Source: Planctomycetota bacterium
GTDB taxonomy: Bacteria; Planctomycetota; PLA2; JAEUHO01
DNA length: 64,000 nt
Assembly: GCA_046350655.1 (NCBI GenBank)
Contig: JAXMAB010000013.1
Location: 54,785-118,784, forward strand
Direction of reading: 5' to 3'
The translations under genes were made by a program, and so were the position numbers. The notes under the pieces were generated by a model, which was not told where the DNA came from, searched no databases, and was given only the letters and a program-made list of their open reading frames with translations. Of this stretch, positions 13,512 through 61,179 are shown in pieces (position 1 is the stretch's first letter; every line of letters starts with the position of its first letter).

Positions 13512-14210
13512 GTGCGACCGGCCAAGCGATTCCTCGGCAGCCGCGCCCTCGCCACGCTGGTGGCGACGGCGATCCGGCCCTTCCGCGCGACCCTGATCGC
13601 GGGCTCGTTGCTCGACCGCGACCCGCGCCTCGTGGCCTTCCTCGCGTCGGGCAAGCCCGCGGTGTTCCTCTGCTGGCACCAGGACTTCGTCGCGTCGCTC
13701 GGCTACCTCTCGCGCTGGTCGCGGGTGCGCCGGATCGTCGCGCTCGCGAGCCCGTCGCGCGACGGCGGGCTGGCGGCCGCCGCGGCGCTCGGCCTCGGCT
13801 TCCGCGAGGTCGCGCGCGGCTCGTCGCGCGACGGCGGGGCGGCCGGGCTGCTCCGCCTCTCGCGGCTCTCGCGGGGCGAGGCGCCGCCCTCGGTGGTCGT
13901 GGTCGCGGACGGCCCGCGGCCGCCCGCGCGCGTGCTGAAGCCCGGCGGGCTCCTCGTCGCGCGCGACGCGGGCCTGCCGATCTGGCTGCTGCGCACCTCG
14001 TGGTCGCCGCCGGGCGAGCTGCGGCGTTCGTGGGCGAAGTTCCACGTCCCGCGCCCGTGGGCGAACGCGGTGGTGCGGGCCGACGGTCCGATCCACGTGG
14101 ACCCGTCGCTCGACCGTGCGGGGCTCGAGGCGGTCCGGCTCGAGGTGGAGGCCCGCATGAACGCGTTGGCGACGCGGGCCGACGCCGACGCCTTGGCCCG
14201 TTGGCGCTGA
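13512..14210 (+). CDS. DUF374 / lysophospholipid acyltransferase family protein
   Basis: CWHQ, ASPSRDG, ARGSS, ADGPRPP...KPGG, SWAKFHVPRPW motifs. Confidence 0.85.
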   Translation: MRPAKRFLGSRALATLVATAIRPFRATLIAGSLLDRDPRLVAFLASGKPAVFLCWHQDFVASLGYLSRWSRVRRIVALASPSRDGGLAAAAALGLGFREVARGSSRDGGAAGLLRLSRLSRGEAPPSVVVVADGPRPPARVLKPGGLLVARDAGLPIWLLRTSWSPPGELRRSWAKFHVPRPWANAVVRADGPIHVDPSLDRAGLEAVRLEVEARMNALATRADADALARWR

Positions 14211-14430
14211 GGCCTCGCCTGGCCGCGGTCTGCCGCGGCCTGCCGTGGCCTTCCGGTGCCCACCGGTGCTCTCCGGGTCCTTCCGGGTGCTCCCGGGTCT
14301 TTCCGGATCCGGTGCGCTCCGATGCCTGGCGGACCTTCCGGTGCTTCCGGGTTCTGCCCTTTCTCTCCGGTGCCGGTCGGGGGGGTGCGGGGACGCGAGG
14401 CCCGGGCGGGGGGCGCGTACCATCGTTCCG

Positions 14431-15087
14431 ATGACGCGTCCGCCGTCCGGTCCCCACGGTCCTTCGGGCTCCGGCCCTTCGAGTCGTCCTCCGCGCGACG
14501 TGCCTCCGCGTCGTCCGTATCCGCCGTCGCCTCCGGCCGCTTCGCCGGCCGCGGGCGGCGTCCGTCCGCCTTCCTCCGGCGCGGGCCGTCCTCCCTCGGG
14601 GCCTGCTCGCGATCCGCGGCCTTCCGCGCCGGCGCGGCCGGCGTCCTCGTCGGTCGCGCCCGCGCGCGACGACGCGGCGCAGCGTCGGGTCTGTGGTTCG
14701 TGTGATCTCTGTTGTCGGTTGCCGTCGATCGAGTGGCCCGAGTATCCGGAGCTGCACAAGCCGCCGGACGCGCCGTGTCTCCATCTCGAGCTCGGCGTCG
14801 GCTGTCGCGTGCACGCGAGCCGGCCGATGCACTGTGCGTCGTTCCAGTGTCTCTGGCTCATGGGGTTCGGTCCCGACGAGCATCGTCCCGACCGCATCGG
14901 TGGTTTCTTCGACGCGGTGGACGCCGGCCAGCTCTTCCTCGTCACCGACCGTGCGCGTCCCGATCCGCGCACGATGCCTGGCGTGCAGGCCTTCATCGAC
15001 GCCTGGTGTCGCACGCGCTCCTGCGACCTCGTCGTCTACCGCGCCGGCGTCGAGCTCCGCGACCCTCCGTCCCGTCCTCGTCGCTGA
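14431..15087 (+). CDS. YkgJ-like cysteine-cluster (Zn/Fe-chelating) protein with Pro/Ser-rich N-terminus
   Basis: CGSCDLCC...PCLHL...GCRVHASRPMHCASFQCLWL. TACCAT lies 7 nt before ATG 14431. Many T-ending codons. Confidence 0.7.
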   Translation: MTRPPSGPHGPSGSGPSSRPPRDVPPRRPYPPSPPAASPAAGGVRPPSSGAGRPPSGPARDPRPSAPARPASSSVAPARDDAAQRRVCGSCDLCCRLPSIEWPEYPELHKPPDAPCLHLELGVGCRVHASRPMHCASFQCLWLMGFGPDEHRPDRIGGFFDAVDAGQLFLVTDRARPDPRTMPGVQAFIDAWCRTRSCDLVVYRAGVELRDPPSRPRR

Positions 15088-15100
15088 CGTCCCTCTCTCG

Positions 15101-15740
15101 CCCGCCGCACTCAGTTCTGCGGCGTCACTTCCGGCGGCGCCCGCCGGTGCGCCGTTCGTCGTTCCGATCCACAGGCCGCTCGCGGCAGATACGCCGCGGA
15201 CCGCGATGAACGTCGCGTTCCCGCTCTGGAGTGAAGAGGGACCGACCTTTCCGGGTCGTGGAGCAGGGGCTCGAACTGCGACCCGTATCGCTTCCGGCGG
15301 CGCCCGCAGGTGCGGCGTGCGTCGTTACGATCTACAGGCCGCTCGCGGCAGATACGCCGCCCGTTCCGATCCTCGACGCCCAACCGGGCACCTGCGGAAC
15401 AGCGCCGCAAGGGAGCATCCGCTTCAACTCTGCTCCGCAGCCCCCAAACGAACGCGCGGCAGGTACACCCGTCTTAGGGGGGTACCCGCCGCACGCAGGT
15501 CGGAGGCGTCGCTTCCGGCGGCGCCCGCAGGTGCGCCGTGCGTCGTTTCGATCTACGGGCCGTACTCGGCAGATTCGCCGCCCGTTCCGATGATCGACGC
15601 CTAACCGGGCACCTGCGGAACAGCGCCGCAACAGAGAATCCGCTTCAACTCTGCTCCGCAGCCCCCAAACGAACGCGCGGCAGGTACACCCGTCTTAGGG
15701 GGGTACCCGCCGCACTCAGGGGGGAGCAGAGTTGAAGCGG
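15101..15740. repeat. Imperfect tandem repeat of a ~221-nt structured unit (2 full plus 1 partial copy) ending in an 18-bp inverted repeat
   Basis: Units 15290-15499 and 15511-15720 align nearly throughout; partial copy at 15128-15197. ccgcttcaactctgctcc (15640-15657) is the reverse complement of 15723-15740. Confidence 0.92.
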
Positions 15741-15918
15741 GTCCGCGGACCAGGGGCGGGCCGACGGGTGAGGACGGCGACCGACGAGACAGCCTCGCGG
15801 ACCCGGAATGTCGTGGACACGTCGCGCAGGCGACGTGGCGCGTCCCGCAGGGGACGCATGCAGACGAAACGAGCAGGAACCGAAAGAGCGCGAACCATTG
15901 CCCCAGCGGCCGCAGCCG

Positions 15919-16011
15919 CTAGAGCACCAGCGCCAACACCAACCCGAGGACCACGAAGGCCATCGTGCCGATCTCGCGCCGGACCATCCCTTCGAGCAGC
16001 GTCTTCGTCAT
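15919..16011 (-). CDS. Small 30-aa membrane protein MTKTLLEGMVRREIGTMAFVVLGLVLALVL
   Basis: ATG with GGAGG 8 nt upstream, mostly G/C-ending codons, C-terminal hydrophobic helix. Below the ORF-track length cutoff. Confidence 0.55.
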   Translation of the reverse strand: MTKTLLEGMVRREIGTMAFVVLGLVLALVL

Positions 16012-16152
16012 GGAAGGAGCCTCCCGGGGAACGAACCCAGGGTAGGGGTGGGGGGGGACAGGGAGGTTCCCCGGGGGGACCGACCCGGCGGCGGCCGGGC
16101 CTCGCGGTCCCGTGGGTCGCCGTAAGCCTTTGTAAAGGCGAAGGTTACGACC

Positions 16153-16851
16153 CTAGCGAGTGACGACCTCGCCCACCTCGACGACGTCGCCGGTCCGGAG
16201 GAGGACCGCGCGGAAGGTACGGCGGTCCTCGTCGGGGGTGCCCTCGAAGCGGACGGTCGTCAGCTCGACGCGGGTCGGGCGATCGATGCGGTAGGCGTGC
16301 GCCTGGACGCGCAGCGTGCCCTTCGGCGTGCGCGCCTGGGTGTACGTCTCGGGGCCGAAGCCGGTGGTGACGTCGGTGTCGAGCGTGCCGCCCGCCTTGC
16401 CCGCGCGGTTGCCGTAGAAGACCTTCTCGCCGTCGGGGCCCGTGAGCCAGAGGTCGACGTCGGTGCCCGGCGTGTCCCAGGTGAGCGTGACGCGGAGGTC
16501 CTTCGCGGGGACCTGCGCGAAGACGGCGACCTCGTCCGAGGCGTCCACGCCGTCGCGGGTGACGACGGCGCGCAGCGTGTTGAGGCCCGGCGCGAGGACC
16601 TGCGGTTGCTCGAAGCGGCCGGCCGCGATCGCGACGGAGAGGGGGATGCCGTTGACGACGAGGGTGGCGCGGCCCTCGTTGAGGCCCTCGACGAGGCCCT
16701 TCACGGCGACGATGCGCTCGGAGGTCATGCCGCCGCGCGGCGACTCGATGCGGACCTTGAGCGCGCGCGGGGCGGGCTCCGCGCGGACGGACGACACGAG
16801 CGCGGCGGCGAGGGCGGCCGCGGCGAGCGGGAGGAGGGCGAGGCGGCGCAT
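16153..16851 (-). CDS. DUF2135 / YfaP-family exported protein
   Basis: Signal peptide; LRVTLTWDTPGTDVDLWLTGPDGE...LDTDVTTGFGPETY; ATG 1 nt after the macroglobulin stop. Confidence 0.88.
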   Translation of the reverse strand: MRRLALLPLAAAALAAALVSSVRAEPAPRALKVRIESPRGGMTSERIVAVKGLVEGLNEGRATLVVNGIPLSVAIAAGRFEQPQVLAPGLNTLRAVVTRDGVDASDEVAVFAQVPAKDLRVTLTWDTPGTDVDLWLTGPDGEKVFYGNRAGKAGGTLDTDVTTGFGPETYTQARTPKGTLRVQAHAYRIDRPTRVELTTVRFEGTPDEDRRTFRAVLLRTGDVVEVGEVVTR

Positions 16852-16852
16852 G

Positions 16853-19800
16853 TCAGCGTCCCTTCTCGGCGCCGGCGGCGCCGTCGCGGCGGATCTCGAA
16901 GGCCTCGCCGGCGCTGTGGCCGGCGACCGTCGGGAAGTACATGAGCTCGGCGGAGGCCGGGAGCGCGGTGAACGCGCCGACGTGCACCGCGCGGACGCGG
17001 TGGCGGAAGACGTGCGTGCCCGGGGCGAGCCGCGTGACGAAGAAGACGGCGCGGTCGTCGCGGGTCTCGGCGTGCGCGGTCGGCGTGGCCTCCTTCACGG
17101 GCGTGGCGTAGACGGTGCCGAGGTCGCGTTCGGGCTCGAAGCCCGCGACGAACGGGCTCGTGACCATGACCAGCTCGCGGGCGGTGGAGGTCGTGACGGT
17201 CACGTCGACCTCGAGCAGCGCGCCGGAGGGCACGGTCTCGGTGACGGGGCGGCGGGTGGTGACGACCTTGCCGCCGGCGTCCTTCGTCTCGAGGAGCCAC
17301 CAGGTGCGCGAGACGGTGAAGCCCGCGTCGGCGGCGGCGATGGCGGGGCCGGTGTCGGTGAAGCGCAGCGCGGCGGTGACGGTGACCGGGCCCTGGCTCG
17401 TCGCGGTGAGGCGGATGGGGCCCTGGGGGAGCTCGGCGTCGCCGAGCTCGAGGACGCCGGCGCCGCCGAACGCGTCGGCGGCGGTGACGATCACGGCCTT
17501 GAGCGGCAGGCCGTTGAGCTCGAGGTCGACGCGGCGGTCCACGCCGAGGTCGTCGTTCGCCGCGGCGTAGCGCGTGAGGAAGGCGACGCAGGCGGCGGTG
17601 TCGCGGGTGCTCTGCCAGTGGTCGCCGCCGGCGCGCGCGGCGAGGAGCCAGCGGACGGCGCCCGCGAGGTCGGGGTGCTTCGGGTCGAGCGCGAGGAGCG
17701 CGCCGGCGACCCAGGCGGTGGTCTCGACGGGGTCGGACGACCAGCGGCCGGGCGCGCCGCGGCCCGCCCAGCGCACGCCGGCGGCGTCGCGCGTGACGTT
17801 CTCGTCGAGGACCGCGAGCCACGACGCGGCGCGCTTGGGCGCCCCGGCCGCGGCCCACGCCCGGATCGCGAACGCGGCGGTCATGGGCTCGACGGCGCCG
17901 GCGATGCGGTCGGCCGGGCCGTCCGTGAGGACGCCGTCGGGGAGGACGTCGGCGTCGGTCACGGCGTCGGCGTCGGCGAGCGCCATGCGGACCCACTGCT
18001 CGACGGGGTCGAGGGGGTTCGCGCCGGCCTTCACGTGGGCGACGAGCCACGGCGTCGCGCGGTCGAGGATCGCGTGCGCGGGCGCGGGGTCGGCCATCAC
18101 CGCGACGGCGCGCGTGAGGCCGTGGACGACGTACGCGGTCATGTAGGCGTCCGACGCGTCCTGCTCCCACCAGCCGAAGCCGCCGTCGGCGTGCTGCAGC
18201 GCGCGGAGCCGGGCGAGGCCCGCGTCGAGTTGCTTCACGAGGTCGGCGCCGGGCGCGGCGGGGGCGGCGCCGAACGTGTCGTGGGCCGCCTTCGCGACGA
18301 CGACCGGCACGAGGCGGCTCATGGTCTGCTCGGTGCAGCCGTACGGGTAGTCCGCGAGGTACGGCAGCGCGGCGCCGACGGCCTGCGCGACGCTCGGCAC
18401 GACCGACACCACGAGCCGCGCGGTGCCCGCCTCGGCCGTGGGCGGCAGGGCGAGCGGCGGCAGCTCGAGGCGGCCGCGTTCGACGCTGGCCGTCGCGACG
18501 CGCGACGAGGGCACGCCCTGGGGCAGGACCTCGAGCGTCGCGACGGACGCGTCGCCGCCGGCCTGGGTGCGCAGCTCCGCGCGGACCGACGCCTTGCCGA
18601 GGCGCGGCGCCGAGAGCGTCACGTCGTGGGTCACGACGGCGCCGGCGCGGAGCGTCTCGGTGGTCGTGCGCGCGCCCCCGAGCTCGACGCCGGTCGCGGA
18701 GACGACGCCCTCGGCCGCGGCGTCGGTCGAGAGGAGGCTGTGGAGGACCCACGGCGCGACCACGCGGTCGGTGCGCCGCAGGAACCGCGGCAGCGTCACG
18801 CGCGTCACGACCTGCTTCACGGTCCGCAGCGTCGTCGTGGACGTGCCGACGCGGGTGCCGGCGTCGACGGCGTGCGCGGTGACGCGCCAGCGCGTCAACG
18901 AGCCGCCCATGGTGACGGGGCCGACGTCGACGCGGCCGTCCGGGCCGGTGCGGAGCGTCGGCGCCCAGAAGATCGACGTGCGGAAGTCCGCGCGGGTCGC
19001 GAGCGGGCCTTCCGAGTCCTCGCGGGCCGCGGCCTTCTTGGGCGCTTCCCCGTCGTCGAGGCTCCGCTCGCGCTCGCCGGCGGCGGGCCCTCCCTCGCGG
19101 GGCGACCCGGTGCCGCCGTCGGCGTCCCGTGCCGGCGGGCTGCCGGGCGCGGCGGCCGGCGGCATCGCGCCCGCCGACAGGGCGGGCCGCGGCGCGGCGT
19201 TCGGCTCCGGCGCGTCCGCGCCGGCGGCGCGGCCGTCGCCGTCCTGCAGCTCGTCGCGCTTCTTCTCGACCTCGGCCCGCACGGCCCAGCCGACGGACGC
19301 GAGGTCGACGGCGCCGCCGGTGCGCACGTCGTTGCGCCGGACCGGGTGGAAGAACGGGGCGAGCGGCGCGAACGGGTCGGCGTAGAGCGCGTAGAGCGCG
19401 TCGTCGACGATGGCGATCGCGACCTCGGCGCCCGCGACGGGCGCGCCGGCGGCGTCGGTCACCGTCGCGGTGACGGGGACGACCTCGCCGGGCTCGAGCT
19501 CGGTCTTCGCCGCGGTCACCGTCGGCACGAGCACGCGGTCGACCGGCGGCACGCGCAGCAGCTTCTCCGCGGCGAGGACGTGGCCGTGGTCGACGAGCAC
19601 CACGCCGACGTACGCGTTCGGCACGTGGGCCGGCGTCACCTTCACCTCGACGACGTGCGCGGCGCCGCGCGCGTCGGTGCCGCCGAGGGCCACCGTGTCC
19701 CACGCGAGGAGCCGCGCGCCCTCGACGGTCGAGAGGAAGGGGCGCGCGCCGACGGGCGACAACACGAGCAGGCGCGCGACGTCGCCCACGGCATACGTGT

Positions 19801-60868: not shown

Positions 60869-61179
60869 GCGCTCCCTTCTACGCGGCCTCGTTCACCGCC
60901 CCGTCACACCGTCCGCCGCACCCGTCCGTCCTCATCCGCTCCGACTCCGTCGCCCCTGTCGGCTCCCGCCGCGCACGGACGAGCGGCGCGCCGTTCCCGT
61001 GATCTGGGGCGTCGTGGCTCCCGGCCTCCGGCCTTCCGATCCTCCGGGATCGCTGCTGCGAGCTCGTCCGAACTGCGCGGCGAGGAGACAACGTCGCCGA
61101 TGCCCCGTTCGCAGCAACGAAAACGGGCCCGGCGGTCGATCCCGCCGGGCCCGTCCGTGATCCGATCACGTTCTTCGAT

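Follow-up and report, generated by a model that had tools for sequence, protein, structure and literature searches.

What is the 221-nucleotide (nt) repeat that separates two convergent genes in this planctomycete genome, a single element amplified in tandem or something composite? The repeat lies in a 64,000-nt stretch of contig JAXMAB010000013.1 (GenBank assembly GCA_046350655.1), which we refer to as the window, and its array fills the 830-nt gap between the two genes. A preliminary description had read each unit as one element, an undescribed structured RNA or a single-stranded DNA repeat. We found instead that the unit has two parts: a copy of the terminator of a neighbouring gene (apex, one arm and U-rich tract) and a 120-nt long hairpin, hereafter LH. 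LH belongs to a genus-restricted family of structured repeats that is dispersed across genomes rather than confined to a single locus. The genomes of the genus are the window's own (G000, 4.96 Mb), JAEUHO010000470.1 from a Planctomycetia bacterium (G001) and a third (G002), all of which are metagenome-assembled genomes (MAGs).

The long-hairpin family

Across 15288-15720, Tandem Repeats Finder reported a period of 221 nt (2.0 copies, 93% matches, no indels, score 768), in agreement with the preliminary description, and the stems named there are present. The count of units needed revision. Rather than 2.8 equal units, the array holds one degenerate short unit (15125-15287, 163 nt) and two long units (15288-15508 and 15509-15729) that are 93% alike and differ at 15 positions. 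A repeat search delineated the third, shorter unit upstream, with 80% identity between 15101-15223 and 15485-15607 and a 25-nt head common to the units at spacings of 163 and 221 nt; a 55-nt head is shared by this degenerate "alpha" unit. The fold of a 237-nt unit reached -135 kcal/mol on the plus strand (z -7.4 against shuffles) and -146.6 kcal/mol on the minus strand (z -8.4). No frame covering the array had a coding-like GC content at third codon positions, and a coding reading was rejected on this ground, as the preliminary description had also held. We likewise rejected readings as a diversity-generating retroelement or a retron, given that the unit differences are not adenine-specific and no reverse transcriptase was found.

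Each long unit carries one LH on the minus strand. In copy beta1 (15291-15410), stem S1 pairs 15297-15303 with 15402-15408 and stem S2 pairs 15304-15313 with 15388-15397, leaving a bulge at 15398-15401 that reads AACA on the plus strand and UGUU on the minus strand. Copy beta2 (15512-15631, minus) has S1 at 15518-15524 and 15623-15629, the bulge at 15619-15622, and S2 at 15525-15534 and 15609-15618. The alpha unit retains a degenerate copy (15128-15247, minus) with intact 3' arm and tail and a decayed 5' arm. It is accompanied by a locus-specific spacer (15248-15290, minus) that has no second copy in the genome; its homologues are the spacers of G001's three short units. Outer stems are identical among the array's own LH copies. 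The apical hairpin does differ between copies while keeping its pairing, but the change (GCCG-CTCG-CGGC versus GCCG-TACT-CGGC) is confined to the loop and leaves the stem letters invariant, so it is not compensatory. Evidence for covariation is found across the LH family and not among the copies inside this array.

By sequence similarity, the repeat appeared to occupy one locus. BLAST of the 221-nt unit returned only this locus in its own genome and only G001 among 60 relatives. The array head pattern had no match in metagenome contigs, and an 18-mer of the arm matched genome contigs 21 times against ~17 expected by chance, with extended similarity in G001 only. A search of Rfam 15 was negative at the gathering threshold over the full window, and at E ≤ 10 it gave no relevant match within 14000-17000, which agrees with the element having been called undescribed. 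A metagenome contig, L085 (Ga0105048_10034585), carries a single LH, 73-75% identical to that of the window, with an A-U pair of its second stem changed to G-C in compensatory fashion. This LH lies directly after the terminator of a conserved element (CE) that also adjoins the window's array.

Covariance models revealed the remainder of the family. Model R1, built from three long LH copies and that of L085, scored beta1 at 139.6 bits, beta2 at 147.8 bits and the degenerate alpha copy at 37.7 bits, and it produced matches of 25-45 bits elsewhere in all three genus genomes. The order's remaining 37 genomes contributed a single marginal match (G033, E 0.008, a rough value). Model R2 was built without the window locus, from the other loci and L085. 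Its top scores were nonetheless the window's two long copies, at 90.8 bits for beta2 and 89.9 bits for beta1, the latter being absent from its training alignment. R2 detected 21, 19 and 8 LH copies in the three genus genomes; no copy turned up outside the genus, where 37 genomes of the class and a further 200 of the phylum were scanned. In the window's genome the copies fall at ~12 loci, and the occupied loci vary among species, which upholds the earlier suggestion of a dispersed element. Conversely, the single-locus occurrence without covariation that would have spoken against it was not what the models found: other loci exist and their basal stems covary. One further copy, of another subfamily, is located in the window itself at 60962-61083 (minus; R1 22.8 bits, R2 47.8 bits), behind an ExbD/TolR-like gene and its terminator, with S1 GCCGCGC/GCGCGGC, bulge AGUU and S2 CGGACGAGC/GCUCGUCCG.

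An assembly artefact is unlikely because of the 15 differences between the long units and the other unit counts in the syntenic array of the sister species. Specifically, G001 has three short units (170-175 nt) and one long unit, as opposed to one short and two long units in the window. The number of units therefore varies between sister species, the coding DNA of which is 92-95% identical. The MAG source and the single genomic locus returned by BLAST would both fit an assembly duplication, or a neutral one-off duplication of the terminator region with no family behind it. We regard this as extremely improbable, in view of the syntenic array in an independent MAG, an unrelated metagenome contig whose LH homologue shows a compensatory change, and the 48 distinct covarying copies recovered with the covariance models.

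In the sense of the upstream gene, every LH shows in order a T-rich tract, S1 (6-7 bp), a 4-nt bulge present only on the 5' arm (usually UGUU) and S2 (9-10 bp). There follow a variable interior with a GGAAC-like motif, the complementary strands S2' and S1', and a GGGAG or GGAAG tail. Full copies are 110-125 nt long, and mini forms of 55-57 nt retain only the base of the hairpin. Subfamilies have stems that are unrelated in sequence yet complementary, namely GCGGCGC/CCGCAGGUGC, GCCGCGC/CGGACGAGC, GCGGGC/CUGCAGGCGC and GCGCGGC/CUGCGGGCGC.

Covariation in these basal stems held in two alignments. In a MAFFT alignment of 30 copies that was not fitted to the structure (A4), 82% of cells were paired, in comparison to 36-50% in slid controls; double changes occurred in 10 of the 17 pairs, and none of 500 shuffles scored as high. 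An alignment of 48 distinct copies (A6) was fitted to the model and accordingly leans towards the structure, with 99.7% of S1 and 91.4% of S2 paired and double changes in 13 of the 17 pairs. The preliminary claim that the element is structured is thus backed by compensatory changes across the family, which affect 10-13 of the 17 basal pairs. Counted by pair type, the S1 and S2 cells comprised 737 Watson-Crick, two G.U and one A.C, and the changes include double transversions such as C-G to A-U. In the interior helices, G.U pairs occur in the gene-sense orientation.

Unpaired positions and flanks also carry signal. CTGTTC occurs 20 times in 34 LH copies, where 0.8 occurrences would be expected, and GGAA outnumbers TTCC by 33 to 11, a strand bias; enrichment of GATC is only 2-fold. 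The 8 nt upstream of LH are 52% T (12% in the genome) and the 6 nt downstream are 76% purine. Over the whole element, minimum free energy was lower on the gene-sense strand in 20 of 34 copies. We considered pairing between the U-tract and the GGGAG tail and set it aside as explainable by composition.

The second hairpin and the flanking genes

The second hairpin of the preliminary description, once separated from LH, is predicted to be the RNA-level terminator of a minus-strand transcript that contains a small peptide gene and CE. We read it so because it is more stable on the minus strand, it has G.U pairs there, and the corresponding position holds canonical terminators in other genera. The predicted terminator spans 15630-15740 (minus), with arm R at 15723-15740, the apex T at 15677-15713 and arm L at 15640-15657. 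The two arms form a perfect 18-bp inverted repeat around the second hairpin in the array's final unit. Hairpin and arms together make up, on the minus strand, a continuous hairpin of ~100 nt that is followed by AUUCUCUGUU at 15630-15639, and the inner apex is likewise followed by GUUCGUUUGG.

Folding energies for this hairpin were -75.8 kcal/mol on the minus strand versus -65.3 kcal/mol on the plus strand in the window, and -74.6 versus -62.7 kcal/mol in G001, giving the minus strand an advantage of 10-12 kcal/mol in both species. Four A.C mismatches on the plus strand of the G001 hairpin are G.U pairs on the minus strand. The combination of a GC-rich hairpin and a U-tract that defines intrinsic terminators is present in the second hairpin on the minus strand but not in LH, which is followed by GGGAG. 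A strict-consensus terminator scan of the region returned no sites. The duplicated module of unit beta1 (15411-15508, minus) is identical to the beta2 copy at 77 of 78 positions and includes a pyrimidine-rich tract, arm L (15419-15436), the GUUCGUUUGG tract and a copy of the T hairpin (15456-15492). Neither the terminator, CE nor the short-unit spacer has a further copy in the genome.

CE (15739-15804, minus) is situated downstream of the peptide gene and outside the repeat. Its core, CCTCACCCGTCGGCCC, is kept in five genera and three metagenome contigs. The 66 nt of CE and both 18-nt arms are 100% identical between G000 and G001, compared with 92-95% for coding DNA. CE is a candidate 3' untranslated region or small-RNA motif. 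Outside the genus, an intrinsic terminator follows CE on the peptide strand at the loci that were read (G008, G011, L083, L085 and L086); that of L086 (Ga0315271_10029489), for example, is GGCCUCUGC-UCAC-GCAGAGGCC, then GUUCUUUUUUUU. The equivalent gap is occupied differently in the metagenome contigs. L085 has an unrelated 16-nt unit repeated seven times between the peptide stop codon and CE, and L086 has three terminator-like units of ~72 nt after CE. The 5' part of CE (CCGCGAGGCTG) resembles a REP-like word, (A/C)CGCGAGGCCCG. The CGCGAGGCCCG word also occurs at 16097-16109 of the window, where CGGGCCTCGCGGT is the reverse complement of (A/C)CGCGAGGCCCG.

The peptide gene itself (15919-16011, minus) is an open reading frame (ORF) with a GGAGG site and encodes a 30-residue, single-helix membrane peptide. 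Behind it lie a DUF2135/YfaP-like gene and then an alpha-2-macroglobulin gene, and the 30-codon gene is kept downstream of these two in many genera. About 30 nt upstream of its ribosome-binding site, CTGTCCCCCCCCACCCCTA at 16043-16061 (minus) is kept in at least 10 genomes of several genera and is probably a promoter or leader element. GTAAC/GTTAC palindromic words at 16117-16153 lie between the stop codon of the YfaP-like gene and a C-rich motif; GTAACC...GGTTAC pairs recur at the matching position in other genera and have an operator-like look.

On the other side of the array, a gene at 14431-15087 (plus) encodes, according to its translation, a protein rich in Cys whose C-terminal domain is CxxCxxCC-like; the stop codon of this gene is 13 nt before the array region. 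Orthologues were present in 13 of 29 genomes of the family, and the protein had no Pfam match. Synteny comparison showed that the array downstream of the Cys-rich gene is absent in other genera and in G002.

Placement, polarity and origin of the repeat

All LH copies in G000 are intergenic. The nearest confident upstream gene is on the LH strand at all 13 loci where this could be determined, an outcome with a chance probability of ~1e-4 under random orientation. At C5:320001 the gene calls are ambiguous, and the adjoining terminator points in the LH direction. LH starts 0-45 nt after a GC-rich hairpin and T-run, twice behind tRNA genes. Its orientation is uncorrelated with GC skew, which is itself weak. 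LH arrays are without exception head-to-tail on one strand with spacers of 20-100 nt that contain no ORF, and a local terminator-like hairpin is co-duplicated with LH in other arrays too.

This placement bears on whether the units could be tandem, separately transcribed genes for trans-acting small RNAs, a reading implied by the RNA branch of the preliminary description. Very stable and conserved folds would suit such genes, and the lack of an Rfam match would make their RNA novel. We nevertheless judge this very unlikely: every unit starts right at a terminator T-run, family members stand behind unrelated genes and often singly, unit counts differ between sister species (1+2 versus 3+1), and the short units are decayed. 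A scan of the region found no sigma-70-like promoter, with planctomycete promoters being poorly covered by such scans.

The occupied loci turn over between species. Upstream of tatC, G002 has at least five LH copies where G000 has the terminator only; this array breaks the G002 assembly at the contig ends C51:1-400 and C67:1-280, two contigs that synteny with G000 C14:91215-92948 places next to each other. The aconitase locus has three copies in G000, two in G001 and none in the available 190 nt of G002. Downstream of an S21-like gene, G000 C8:269440-270200 (L133) is a mosaic of full LH, 57-nt mini LH and repeated spacer with a period of ~235 nt. Other hairpins keep company with the arrays. 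Those of the form CGAAACGAA-GGGGTCGTAGAC-GTTCGTTTCG, another repeat family, occur just after LH arrays at G000 C4:1136400-1136560 (L115) and C5:624050-624200 (L114), and GGGGTCGTAG hairpins lie beside LH arrays. The CGCGAGGCCCG word and the GGGGTCGTAG hairpins agree with a lineage rich in polar intergenic hairpin repeats.

We consider it probable that LH is a new family of extragenic hairpin repeats of the REP/BIME/ERIC kind, with an incidental or modest effect at the RNA level, and that it was amplified locally in the window. Tandem amplification at this locus, as first described, stands. The array would have formed by head-to-tail amplification of a two-part module, the peptide/CE terminator plus one LH. 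In the past, LH may have spread to sites right behind intrinsic terminators, in the direction of the terminated gene, and unequal recombination or slippage could then have made arrays grow or shrink, with the adjacent terminator co-duplicated. Propagation as DNA would call for machinery, lost or not yet known, that reads a Watson-Crick-perfect hairpin with an asymmetric bulge. The stems are Watson-Crick only while the neighbouring terminator accepts G.U pairs, a contrast that suggests a constraint at the DNA level, either recognition of a single-stranded DNA hairpin or templated quasi-palindrome repair. Any effect of LH would be felt in terminator read-through RNA, in which the 17-bp basal helix (S1 and S2) might block 3' exonucleases or further read-through between the convergent genes. 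Transcription-linked polarity and strand-specific unpaired motifs suggest an RNA role of this type.

Several results weigh against a repeat of this kind. No Y1/RAYT transposase (PF01797), reverse transcriptase or integron integrase was found in G000 or G001, MAGs that, like all genomes of the genus, are 88-90% complete. The HUH/RAYT transposase that the preliminary description had proposed to look for is thus missing from the window's genome and its closest relative. PF01797 has three matches in G002, none with an LH at the locus. No target-site duplication or terminal tag is visible around LH. The copy number of 8-21 per genome is low relative to classical REPs, and the home-made covariance models provide only rough E-values. 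Furthermore, polarity follows transcription and not GC skew, which is as compatible with an RNA function under selection as with a selfish repeat; the same holds for the conserved unpaired motifs and for the 92.5% identity of the window's LH between species, the level of coding DNA.

These last points lead to the most serious competitor, in which selection maintains LH as a cis-acting RNA element at the 3' ends of genes and transcripts reach it by reading through weak, GC-rich terminators. The basal helix, perhaps extended by pairing of the U-tract with GGGAG, would act as a back-up stop, insulator or exonuclease barrier. A protein might bind at the UGUU bulge and the GGAAC motif, and an array would be a reinforced insulator between convergent genes. 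Such a function would account for LH sharing the strand of the upstream gene at all 13 loci irrespective of GC skew, the strand-specific unpaired motifs (CTGTTC, and GGAA over TTCC), the pyrimidine-rich 5' flank opposite a purine-rich 3' tail, the gene-sense G.U pairs of the interior helices and the coding-level conservation between species. However, several copies lie behind strong terminators with 7-9 U and would be expected to be transcribed rarely. The basal stems have almost no G.U pairs in 780 cells and show double transversions, which is atypical for selection purely at the RNA level. Loci vary by species and involve unrelated genes (aconitase, S21-like, outer membrane protein, tRNAs), resembling spread more than a regulon, and composition alone accounts for the pairing of flank and tail. 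We therefore view a selected RNA element as possible but doubtful.

Could LH be a cis-site of single-stranded DNA recombination or transposition, analogous to attC or an IS200/IS605 end, whose bulged hairpin is read on one strand? Its covarying Watson-Crick-only stems, conserved asymmetric 4-nt bulge and variable interior would be in keeping with such a site, as would head-to-tail arrays, presence/absence differences between species and mini forms of 55-57 nt that consist of the hairpin base only. The enzymes and core sites do not bear this out. An integron integrase (TIGR02249) exceeded the cut-off in G002 only (C35:70963-71907, 430 bits versus a cut-off of 265), with no LH within 20 kb. The attC cores RYYYAAC and GTTRRRY are absent, the GTT being in the unpaired bulge, and there are no ORF-bearing cassettes. 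We accordingly rejected an identity with integron attC sites. A link to RAYT was rejected for G000 and G001, which have no PF01797 match, and the Y1 genes of G002 are without an adjoining LH. Orientation is independent of GC skew. With these observations, a single-stranded DNA site is quite unlikely.

Three further observations concern recombination more generally. Two 62-nt attC-like repeats with AACGTT in G002 (L128, 5325-5386 and 10641-10702) are unrelated to LH. A Xer-like recombinase gene between two arrays on contig C7 was judged coincidental, having ordinary XerC/D domains and housekeeping neighbours. The LH arms can be read as terminal inverted repeats, with no flanking direct duplication, with arms that are unrelated between subfamilies although the bulge is shared, and with housekeeping neighbours, though no systematic transposase search was made.

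A bolder possibility is an undescribed, orientation-specific system that recognises intrinsic terminators and uses LH as its cis-site. This could be a mobilisation system other than RAYT, reverse transcriptase or integrase, or a protein-RNA "terminator clamp". In its mobilising form, the bulged hairpin would be inserted 3' of the terminator T-run, perhaps guided by pairing between the GGGAG tail and the pyrimidine tract. In its clamp form, a dedicated protein would read the UGUU bulge and the GGAAC motif. We think such a system unlikely.

Few repeat families have been studied outside Proteobacteria, and LH, whether or not it has a function, is a well-defined addition to them. Its set of features comprises a long hairpin, an asymmetric bulge, Watson-Crick-only covariation, absolute polarity and obligatory placement after a terminator. 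If placement and polarity reflect a mechanism and not only the purging of harmful insertions, they would point to either DNA that spreads to terminators without a known transposase or an RNA device associated with weak high-GC terminators. The family also has practical implications. BLAST alone leads to the verdict of a single locus, whereas a structure-aware model exposes the family. LH arrays fragment MAG assemblies and can be mistaken for CRISPR-like or small-RNA loci.

Comparison with known repeats and mobile elements

Several known systems share part of this feature set. Like attC sites and CALIN arrays, LH keeps its structure and not its sequence: above a basal stem come an unpaired spacer or extrahelical bases, then another stem and a variable terminal part. 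The size range is similar and the arrays run head-to-tail. It differs in having no R'' RYYYAAC or R' GTTRRRY; S1 is GC-only (GCGGCGC, GCCGCGC or GCGGGC), and the sole GTT is in the unpaired bulge. Unlike attC/CALIN, it has no ORF cassettes, the integrase is absent from two of the three genomes, and no LH lies at the integron of G002.

Bacterial group IIC introns insert just past the stem-loops of intrinsic terminators, oriented with transcription. LH resembles them in this choice of target, which is a comparison of how they might work only. It lacks intron domains and a GUGYG 5' end, and G000 and G001 are without a reverse transcriptase.

Terminator-like repeats provide another parallel. TRIT of Mycobacterium tuberculosis is a terminator-like repeat conserved in sequence, and in Neisseria and Haemophilus paired uptake sequences form terminators. 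As with these, LH is a lineage-specific repeated hairpin at gene 3' ends, in GC-rich or competent bacteria. Unlike them, LH is not a terminator: it comes after a separate hairpin and U-tract, and it is followed by GGGAG rather than U.

Closer in size are the ERIC/IRU elements of enterobacteria, which are imperfect palindromes of ~127 bp, and elements of the BOX, Correia and RIME types, which are mosaic repeats. LH shares with this group its length, its long imperfect palindrome, an intergenic and often transcribed location, modular arrays and a possible effect on mRNA stability. It has no sequence relation to them and no Rfam match at E ≤ 10, and it departs from them in its single polarity relative to the upstream gene, its asymmetric bulge, and subfamily stems that are wholly different yet complementary.

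A further comparison is with REP elements, one end of which is tagged with the tetranucleotide GTAG or CGTC (Di Nocera et al. 2013, PMC3733652). LH has no such tag in 34 aligned copies, its ends being T-rich at the 5' side and GGAGG or GGAAT at the 3' side. It is also longer (110-125 nt, or 55-57 nt in mini forms, versus 20-40 nt for REP), and always head-to-tail where REP/BIME form inverted dimers, an arrangement never seen in LH. In contrast to the REPIN-RAYT system, G000 and G001 have no RAYT, there are 8-21 copies per genome, and placement after a T-run is strict. What LH has in common with REP, BIME and REPIN-RAYT is that all are lineage-specific extragenic hairpins that lie, for the most part, 3' of genes where neighbouring ORFs are co-directional or converge (PMC3733652). 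As in REP and BIME, LH copies are clustered in arrays, shift in number among relatives and are plausibly transcribed as 3' trailers.

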